From a virus (Duplodnaviria; Heunggongvirae; Uroviricota; Caudoviricetes): a stretch of 13,417 nt of DNA. The stretch spans positions 1-13,417 of the IMG/VR virus record IMGVR_UViG_2526164690_000043. One strand, given 5' to 3'. Positions 1,255 through 1,314 of this stretch are shown here, in pieces. Within the stretch, counting starts at the first letter, position 1, and the number at the start of each line of letters is the position of its first letter. The notes beneath the pieces were generated by a model. It was not told the origin of the DNA. It ran no database searches and worked only from the letters and a program-made list of their open reading frames with translations. The translations under genes were made by a program, and so were the position numbers.

Positions 1255-1314
1255 GGACAACGTGAAACAACGAGACACAACGACGAACAACAAGGAACAA
1301 AATGGAACAACGGG
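1255..1314. repeat. Six tandem 10-bp repeats (consensus AACAACGNGN), helically phased
   Basis: The core ACAAC (ACAAA in unit 5) recurs at 1257, 1267, 1277, 1287, 1297 and 1307, exactly 10 bp apart, directly downstream of the int stop. Likely a phased protein-binding array; function not determinable from sequence. Confidence 0.8.

Follow-up and report, generated by a model that had tools for sequence, protein, structure and literature searches.

The intergenic region between int and alpA in the stretch of DNA analysed here (13,417 nucleotides; the window) carries a run of short, evenly spaced direct repeats, which raises the question of which protein reads them and to what end. The plus strand across this array reads ggACAACgtgaaACAACgagacACAACgacgaACAACaaggaACAAAatggaACAACggg, with a period of exactly 10 bp: ACAAC starts at positions 1257, 1267, 1277, 1287 and 1307, and ACAAA at 1297. 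The original prediction, drawn from the sequence alone, described six copies of ACAAC every 10 bp between int and alpA, downstream of int. The location is as claimed, the array beginning 27 bp past the int stop codon, and the period and the six units hold; the copy number of the pentamer is slightly overstated, as it is exact in five of the six units and matches at four of five bases in the sixth. The accompanying claim that every copy lies on the same face of the helix is approximate, because, on a helix of 10.5 bp per turn, units 10.0 bp apart accumulate a drift of about 85 degrees across the array.

Tandem Repeats Finder (TRF) reports period 10 over 1257–1310, and a repeat search places all array units in one family. 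The repeated unit exceeds the pentamer, being roughly (G/A)nG(A/G)AACAAC(G). ACAAC is found 31 times in the window against 30 expected, so the phasing, rather than the abundance of the pentamer, is the signal. When the whole window was shuffled 300 times with dinucleotides preserved, no 5-mer occupied more than 3 of six phased positions, short of the 5 seen in the array. A-tract curvature as the role of the array was excluded by inspection: the cores are AACAA and contain no A-run of four or longer. Visual search revealed no leftward promoter that the array might serve, and an Rfam scan of 1000–3200 at a permissive threshold returned two chance-level matches only, indicating no known RNA family in that interval. 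Coordinates of the array and of the features discussed below are collected in Table 1.

Table 1 The phased array, its neighbours and related arrays in the window
Feature	Position	Strand	Description
int, P4-type tyrosine integrase	1–1230	+	Pfam Arm-DNA-bind_3 (N-terminal arm-binding) and Phage_integrase
Phased array	1252–1316	+	Six 10-bp units; proposed cooperative AlpA operator
Phased-array units, in order		+	TGCGGACAACGT, GTGAAACAACGA, GAGACACAACGA, GACGAACAACAA, AAGGAACAAAAT, ATGGAACAACGG
Conserved hairpin	1404–1433	.	Inverted repeat with a 12-bp stem, between array and promoter
Only sigma-70-like alpA promoter candidate	1504–1532	+	TTGCCA, 17 bp, CACAAT; TG before the −10
Promoter-proximal mini-array	1518–1552	+	TGACACAATC, CGACACAACC, then degenerate units; overlaps the candidate −10 and start site
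Single strong unit match	1573–1584	+	AAGAAACAACAA; matrix score 12.4; just upstream of the alpA ribosome-binding site
alpA, 62-aa winged-helix protein	1595–1783	+	Pfam Phage_AlpA PF05930, E = 3e-18; PHROG 2790; presumed array binder
Short array	7612–7645	+	CTGAAACAAACA, CAGACACAACAG, AGGAAAAAACAA; upstream of a small ORF; matrix cluster
Intrinsic terminator	7880–7901	+	Terminates the upstream operon; lies directly before the late array
Late array, inverted orientation	7895–7949	−	TTTGTTCGTG, GTTGTTCCAC, GTTGTTCAC and weaker units; between terminator and capsid operon
Candidate late promoter	7941–7968	+	Last unit TTGTTC as −35, 16 bp, TATTTT

Judged by its gene content and its junctions, the window represents a capsid-forming phage-inducible chromosomal island (PICI) between roxA and phoQ. 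It has co-oriented int and alpA genes at its left end, a replication module, its own capsid, portal and terminase genes, and an att duplication; the att core GG(A/G)CATATTT is repeated at roxA and phoQ, and comparison with the empty K-12 site sets the crossover at this sequence, overlapping the phoQ stop codon. The genes past alpA encode a RepA-type helicase, an SSB, a PerC-like regulator that matches PHROG 'transcriptional activator' families, an HK97-type capsid, a portal and a terminase. The closest match found is Escherichia coli O103 RM8385, whose island also lies between roxA and phoQ and which is 100% identical over 1100–1850 and 99.5% identical over 7640–8400. Int and AlpA have the same protein accessions as the EcCICFT073 proteins, and the int–alpA–ORF3 module (1–2592) is 99.8% identical to this prototype, found at the same site in CFT073. 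The two islands differ in their replication and packaging modules, the replication module containing a RepA-type helicase in the window and a primase in CFT073. The island is a mosaic of an EcCICFT073-like left module, a different replication module and a capsid-forming-PICI packaging module.

Several further observations concern the make-up of the island. Recombination upstream of the capsid module has its breakpoint at about 7870–7877, just ahead of the terminator and the late array. Directly downstream of the RepA-type helicase gene are two perfect tandem 13-mer duplications 168 bp apart, at 6059–6083 (AAAAGTGGGGAGT) and 6227–6251 (AAAAGTGGGGAGC), which are likely to be the origin iterons of this replication module. 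On window positions 1836–2738 and 7238–7519, we noted that ORF3 weakly matches an Ant/Bro-N-like anti-repressor. A mechanically called ORF at 7567–7986 crosses the terminator and the late array; its PHROG match extends no further than residue 75 counted from the ATG at 7645, and the RefSeq annotation of RM8385 gives a protein of 74 aa at this locus, so its 3′ extension is probably non-coding and may result from a 2-nt difference from RM8385.

The original prediction had proposed asking whether the array keeps its sequence and copy number in related islands, and it does. The int–alpA region is found at 77–100% identity in about 880 of 5,426 complete E. coli genomes. Across an alignment of ten variants of this region, mean column identity is 93.6% in the AACAA cores against 76.8% in the five spacer columns (Mann–Whitney p = 1.8e-4), and 82.5% in the rest of the intergenic region. 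A distant clade has lost one unit on the left and gained one on the right, keeping five to six phased units. This conservation of cores above spacers, together with the turnover of end units with the phase kept, points to selection on a repeated contact and not on the whole sequence. The array is identical between islands with a RepA-type helicase and islands with a primase. The motif is nearly unchanged across islands whose AlpA alleles, in two classes that have the wing in common, are 58–60% identical; with no co-variation of motif and AlpA, a conserved host or helper-phage factor would fit as well.

Searching genome contigs with the AlpA protein identified three loci, of which two are distant and lack arrays, and a word-indexed protein search returned 19 AlpA relatives, mostly close ones. 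Two intermediate relatives (L022 and L024) have an extra gene between int and alpA and no array upstream of alpA; in both, TTGTTC/TGTTTC repeats adjoin a doubled motif upstream of int. CP4-57 of K-12, the original AlpA element, has no AACAA arrays, including at attL, and a different doubled motif (TAGGCCCA), and so evidence from CP4-57 does not transfer directly. A scan of viral contigs for four successive AACAA(N5) units gave matches dominated by low-complexity giant-virus DNA. Two other island families were observed alongside. One (L027 3440–3545; L015 1990–2110) has an extra gene after int and a short spacer before alpA with two GTGATATCAC palindromes, a strong terminator hairpin directly before the alpA ATG and no AACAA array; alpA control seems to be built differently there. 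The other, at the cspD site, has a different 10-bp array right after int (AATATC x3; L014 1817–1843) and an ACGAAC x3 array in plus orientation 120–150 bp upstream of alpA.

Within the island, the motif is not confined to the int–alpA spacer. A 12-column matrix built solely from the six array units was used to scan the island for phased clusters, and it yielded clusters on both att arms (attL and attR) and ahead of the capsid operon, a weaker one at the short array, and a GTGACA array past the last gene. The attL cluster lies upstream of int, just left of the window, and reads ccTTGTTCcag, cTTGTTTcac, gTTGTAGccc, tTTGTGCaac, followed by two copies of the 12-mer GGTGTAGTTAAT and the int ATG; the right-end cluster is built likewise, some 90 bp from the att core. 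Each arm (L001 1749–1883; L016 3443–3377) thus presents a composite of three or four TTGTT-type units at 10-bp spacing and then the tandem 12-mer pair, and attL has an additional GTTTCA x4 array nearer the core. The int–alpA array had been described as not obviously lying at an att site, which is correct; the inverted copies of its motif at attL and attR, just outside the window, had escaped the original prediction. Counting with the degenerate core [ACG]AAC[AC], the island contains 3 chains of at least three phased units, against a mean of 0.11 and a maximum of 2 in shuffles, and about 67 kb of flanking chromosome and lambdoid prophage contain 0. A single motif is thus common to both att arms, the control region of alpA and the late promoter of this island, an observation new to the literature searched.

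The array upstream of the capsid gene persists in two capsid-forming PICIs, ZH063 and SM107, that integrate elsewhere and carry different int/alpA modules. The candidate late promoter falls below the promoter-scan threshold and was read from the sequence, and it is therefore offered tentatively; its layout, with TTGTTC 16 bp before TATTTT, is found in the window and in ZH063 (L026). The short array also occurs in the O157 island L018. The GTGACA array (GTGACAACCA GTGACACACC GTGACAAAAAG) directly follows the last island gene in plus orientation, some 400 bp ahead of the attR array (L016, about 3845–3810 in island orientation), and is kept in three capsid-forming PICI families (also L026 16524–16560 and L027 15917–15945). 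Arrays of plus and minus orientation tend to be paired in inverted fashion on either side of int, of the small ORF that precedes the capsid operon and of the right-end spacer.

The doubled 12-mer beside the att-arm arrays has a distribution of its own. It stands 16–18 bp before the int ATG, with a co-oriented pair on the other arm, in a position that matches the annotated arm repeats of P4 attP; the pairs are centred 91 bp to the left and 142 bp to the right of the GGACATATTT core. A doubled motif has been described in helper-embedded PICIs at 81 and 132 bp (PMC10111431). Its sequence, unlike that of the TTGTTC-type arrays, varies with the integrase: GGTGTAGTTAAT here, TGTGTGGTCAGT in SM107 (L027), TGGTCCAAA in L024, GGGGGCAT in P4 and, as noted above, another in CP4-57. 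The Int of L027 is 64% identical in its N-terminal domain, and there the 12-mer has changed to the SM107 form and the TTGTTC arrays are unchanged.

An AlphaFold2 model of AlpA (pLDDT 87) consists of a helix–turn–helix and a wing only, and its top Foldseek matches are the GIsul2 excisionase (8c3t; TM 0.83), RdfS, Pukovnik Xis, TorI and BldC, with 8c3t, 8dgl, 4j2n and 1z4h as the excisionase structures matched. PHROG 2790 is annotated 'excisionase and transcriptional regulator'. The model thus assigns AlpA a winged-helix fold of the excisionase, or recombination directionality factor (RDF), type. Head-to-tail binding at direct repeats spaced one helical turn apart is the defining mode of RDFs, among them lambda Xis, P2 Cox, 186 Apl and P4 Vis (PMC7498355). 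Features expected of such an operator are seen at the locus: same-orientation repeats one turn apart (six at 10 bp, where three or more at 10–11 bp would be expected), a small winged-helix RDF encoded in the same element, the motif at att by the arm sites, and constraint focused on the cores.

Published experiments place the array within DNA that responds to AlpA. In EcCICFT073, AlpA supplied in trans activates PalpA–lacZ and not Pint, helper phages induce the alpA reporter, and overexpression of AlpA alone leads to excision and replication (PMC6092414). The published primers map exactly to the window: the PalpA–lacZ fragment of pJP2038 is 1198–1652, the helper-responsive reporter pJP1290 is 1198–2269, and all other reporters likewise start at 1198. 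Every PalpA reporter therefore includes the array, together with the rest of the fragment. AlpA was without effect on a Pint fusion spanning −307 to +536 of int (PMC6092414), a fragment that by primer mapping contains the attL arrays.

On this basis we regard it as somewhat better than an even prospect that the array is a cooperative AlpA operator for positive autoregulation of alpA, which begins 280 bp downstream. Each 10-bp unit would bind one AlpA monomer, head to tail, and a nucleoprotein filament of about six protomers would bend or wrap some 60 bp of DNA. Such a filament within the alpA control region could mediate the known positive autoregulation, locking in induction of the satellite. 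The contact of AlpA with the units, and the route from there to raised transcription, are what we infer. The array lies 190–250 bp upstream of the only promoter-like site, a distance too great for simple class I or class II activation. The filament might instead bend or loop the DNA to the candidate promoter, its mini-array and the single strong unit before alpA; alternatively it might spread and relieve silencing across the AT-rich stretch at 1320–1480 (29–30% GC), or serve an unmapped nearer promoter. The TTTGCCA block of the candidate promoter is invariant across the ten-variant alignment, and the mini-array is a sixth member of the repeat family of the array, with TRF period 10 over 1525–1552. 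The hairpin between array and promoter folds in three variants as single sequences, a G–U pair in the window being a compensated G–C in E700025. With its T6 run on the minus-strand side it resembles a leftward terminator; it may terminate leftward transcription or serve as an insulator, but neither a gene nor a promoter reading leftward is evident.

On this view AlpA would govern a regulon that extends over the island, with the int–alpA array as one of its nodes. The att-arm arrays beside the Int arm-type 12-mers suggest a role in excision, and the array directly upstream of the capsid operon suggests activation of late genes. Some observations count against an AlpA operator. The array runs in the opposite orientation to the arrays ahead of int and of the capsid operon, it is unusual for RDF sites to lie on both att arms, and AlpA has a null effect on the Pint fragment that bears the attL arrays. 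Within 1198–1652, AlpA could also act through the mini-array or the single strong unit instead.

Some of the other explanations considered leave the array with no binder, or give it to the integrase or the initiator. Short tandem repeats can come from replication slippage, and a neutral, functionless product of that kind is barely credible here: conservation is periodic, with cores above spacers, units turn over with phase and number kept, the motif recurs at four other control regions, and control DNA has no such array. Iterons of a replication origin, or a cis-required region like the type-1 repeats in ori/crr of P4, would suit the P4 repeats (GGTGAACAG, 10–11 bp apart), which resemble the units and lie upstream of vis, adjoining att. 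Islands whose initiators are unrelated nevertheless have an identical array; here it stands 3.3 kb upstream of repA, with separate perfect 13-bp tandem repeats just downstream of that gene; the literature, moreover, puts the PICI ori downstream of pri. Iterons are accordingly an exceedingly unlikely function for the array. Extra arm-type sites for the N-terminal domain of Int, used in intasome assembly or Int-dependent regulation, would suit the Arm-DNA-bind_3 domain of this protein and the presence of the motif around the att core on both arms, and the P4 record also annotates an arm repeat inside its int gene. This is nevertheless very unlikely, because the P4-like arm position is taken by the doubled 12-mer, which varies with Int in L027 where the arrays stay constant, and because no copy of the 12-mer is found near the int–alpA array; the array is also about 1.5 kb from the attL core, as against an expectation of about 100–200 bp for arm sites.

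Other explanations keep a regulatory role and change the protein. A PerC-family activator, or another conserved island protein, could bind the arrays and leave AlpA to act elsewhere in the fragment: a PerC-like gene, with its PHROG activator match, is encoded just before the late region and is present in every examined island with a late array. We know of no demonstrated phased-repeat binding by PerC proteins, the att-arm arrays would go unexplained, and the fold of AlpA predicts exactly such phased sites, all of which makes this reading highly unlikely. A host regulator of tandem sites gating alpA is a quite improbable candidate. OmpR, a response regulator of the OmpR/PhoB family, occupies three tandem dimer sites at ompF and ompC, and its half-sites are of the GxxAC type, for instance TGAAACA. 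The array, read as six contiguous 10-bp half-sites, resembles that design, and the motif is near-constant across islands with different Int and AlpA alleles in one host species. Against it, no part that such regulators are known to play in P4-type recombination accounts for arrays by the arm sites on both att arms, CP4-57, with its divergent AlpA, lacks such arrays at attL, and AlpA alone activates fragment 1198–1652. A landing pad for a helper-phage protein, for example an RDF of the Xis/Cox type that switches on alpA, is unlikely but plausible, and could coexist with AlpA binding. P2 Cox offers a precedent at the P4 late promoter, where the P4 record has three 10-bp repeats; the array lies within helper-responsive pJP1290; the EcCIMP1 alpA reporter answers helper induction even in an alpA mutant, and excisionase cross-talk has been seen; and lambda Xis sites X1 and X2 contain an ACACAAC/GTTGTGT core. 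Yet X1 and X2 score only 7.9 and 6.6 with our matrix, no better than nearby background, the helpers lambda, phi80 and HK106 have differing excisionases, the arrays on the att arms and at the late promoter suggest an island-encoded binder, and the island is induced by AlpA alone, without a helper (PMC6092414). With a similarly low probability, the array and its inverted partners at the att arms and the late promoter would be where helper and satellite converge: an early excisionase-type protein of the induced helper would nucleate on the AACAA units and fire alpA, after which AlpA, having the same fold, would take over these units and sustain expression, excision and the capsid operon. If so, the long-sought inducer that helpers provide to Gram-negative PICIs would amount to cross-talk between RDFs that read one repeat code, the PICI counterpart of P2 Cox on P4.

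AlpA therefore remains the main candidate binder, given that Int and the initiator are unlikely and given its RDF-type fold and annotation, the architecture of the repeats and the motif at the att arms. Of the two kinds of site first suggested for the array, the Xis/AlpA type is the one favoured, indirectly, by these features and by the position of the array within the AlpA-activated fragment; integrase arm sites give way to the different, doubled 12-mer.

The interest of an AlpA operator here follows from the position of AlpA as master switch of Gram-negative PICIs. The array of about 60 bp in the control region of EcCICFT073 offers a concrete target for mutation and footprinting, and the shared motif predicts a simple regulon joining autoregulation, excision and packaging-gene expression, as well as providing a sequence signature for annotating control regions in such satellites. 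The array also makes helper induction of Gram-negative PICIs directly testable, which we consider of moderate interest. In the literature searched we found no account of the array, of AlpA DNA targets or of how helpers turn AlpA on, and no paper describing binding sites of any PICI AlpA; what is new is thus a candidate operator for a PICI master regulator in the prototype EcCICFT073.

The nearest known arrangement is that of P2 Cox at the P4 late promoter PLL. Cox sites comprise at least six boxes 10–11 bp apart with a footprint of at least 70 bp, and by binding such boxes ahead of the P4 promoter from which vis, the alpA homologue, is expressed, Cox derepresses the satellite (PMC3936717). Both loci have about six direct repeats at 10–11 bp over some 60–70 bp, upstream of a satellite operon led by alpA or vis, and in both a small filament-forming RDF would be the binder: Cox binding activates the satellite, and AlpA binding here is proposed. 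They differ in motif (TTAAAG/CNCA for Cox), in the Cox boxes' mixed orientation and in the source of the protein, which is the helper for P2 and, as proposed, the satellite itself here; the distance to the promoter is also larger here. Phage 186 Apl is likewise a small RDF that binds phased direct repeats both at att and at a promoter region (seven repeats at pR–pL), its binding being cooperative and each site of low specificity (PMC7498355); Apl, however, represses, whereas AlpA activates its own fragment, and the protein family and motif differ. In lambda, Xis forms a head-to-tail winged-helix filament on X1–X1.5–X2, repeats one helical turn apart of which X1 has the GTTGTGT/ACACAAC core, but with three sites only, on one arm only, and with no transcriptional role at a distant promoter.

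P4 Vis belongs to the family of AlpA (44% identity) and is both an excisionase and a transcription regulator, binding attP and the late promoter region; unlike AlpA, it represses PLL and Pint, and the AACAA-like motifs of P4 are weak. Two structural neighbours of the AlpA model, RdfS of ICEMlSym and BldC of Streptomyces, are winged-helix proteins that form head-to-tail multimers with one repeat per DNA turn and act at att sites, at promoters or at both, sometimes as activators (PMC11963761), although their hosts and elements are distant and their motifs are other ones. The P4 attP arm repeats and the doubled motif of helper-embedded PICIs come from the same kind of element and adjoin TTGTT arrays at att arms, but are tandem 12-mers, two per arm, of other sequence and absent from the int–alpA spacer. 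The AlpA of Pseudomonas aeruginosa shares the name and a C-terminal helix–turn–helix, and is otherwise a larger, Q-like antiterminator whose N-terminal segment inserts into RNA polymerase and which recognizes a single GGGACG between −35 and −10; a loading site for such an antiterminator was ruled out for the array, AlpA here having 62 residues, the six-unit array lying far upstream and the mechanism not being comparable. By analogy, then, the array would belong in kind to the known phased direct-repeat operators, of the type bound by Xis, Cox, Apl and Vis.
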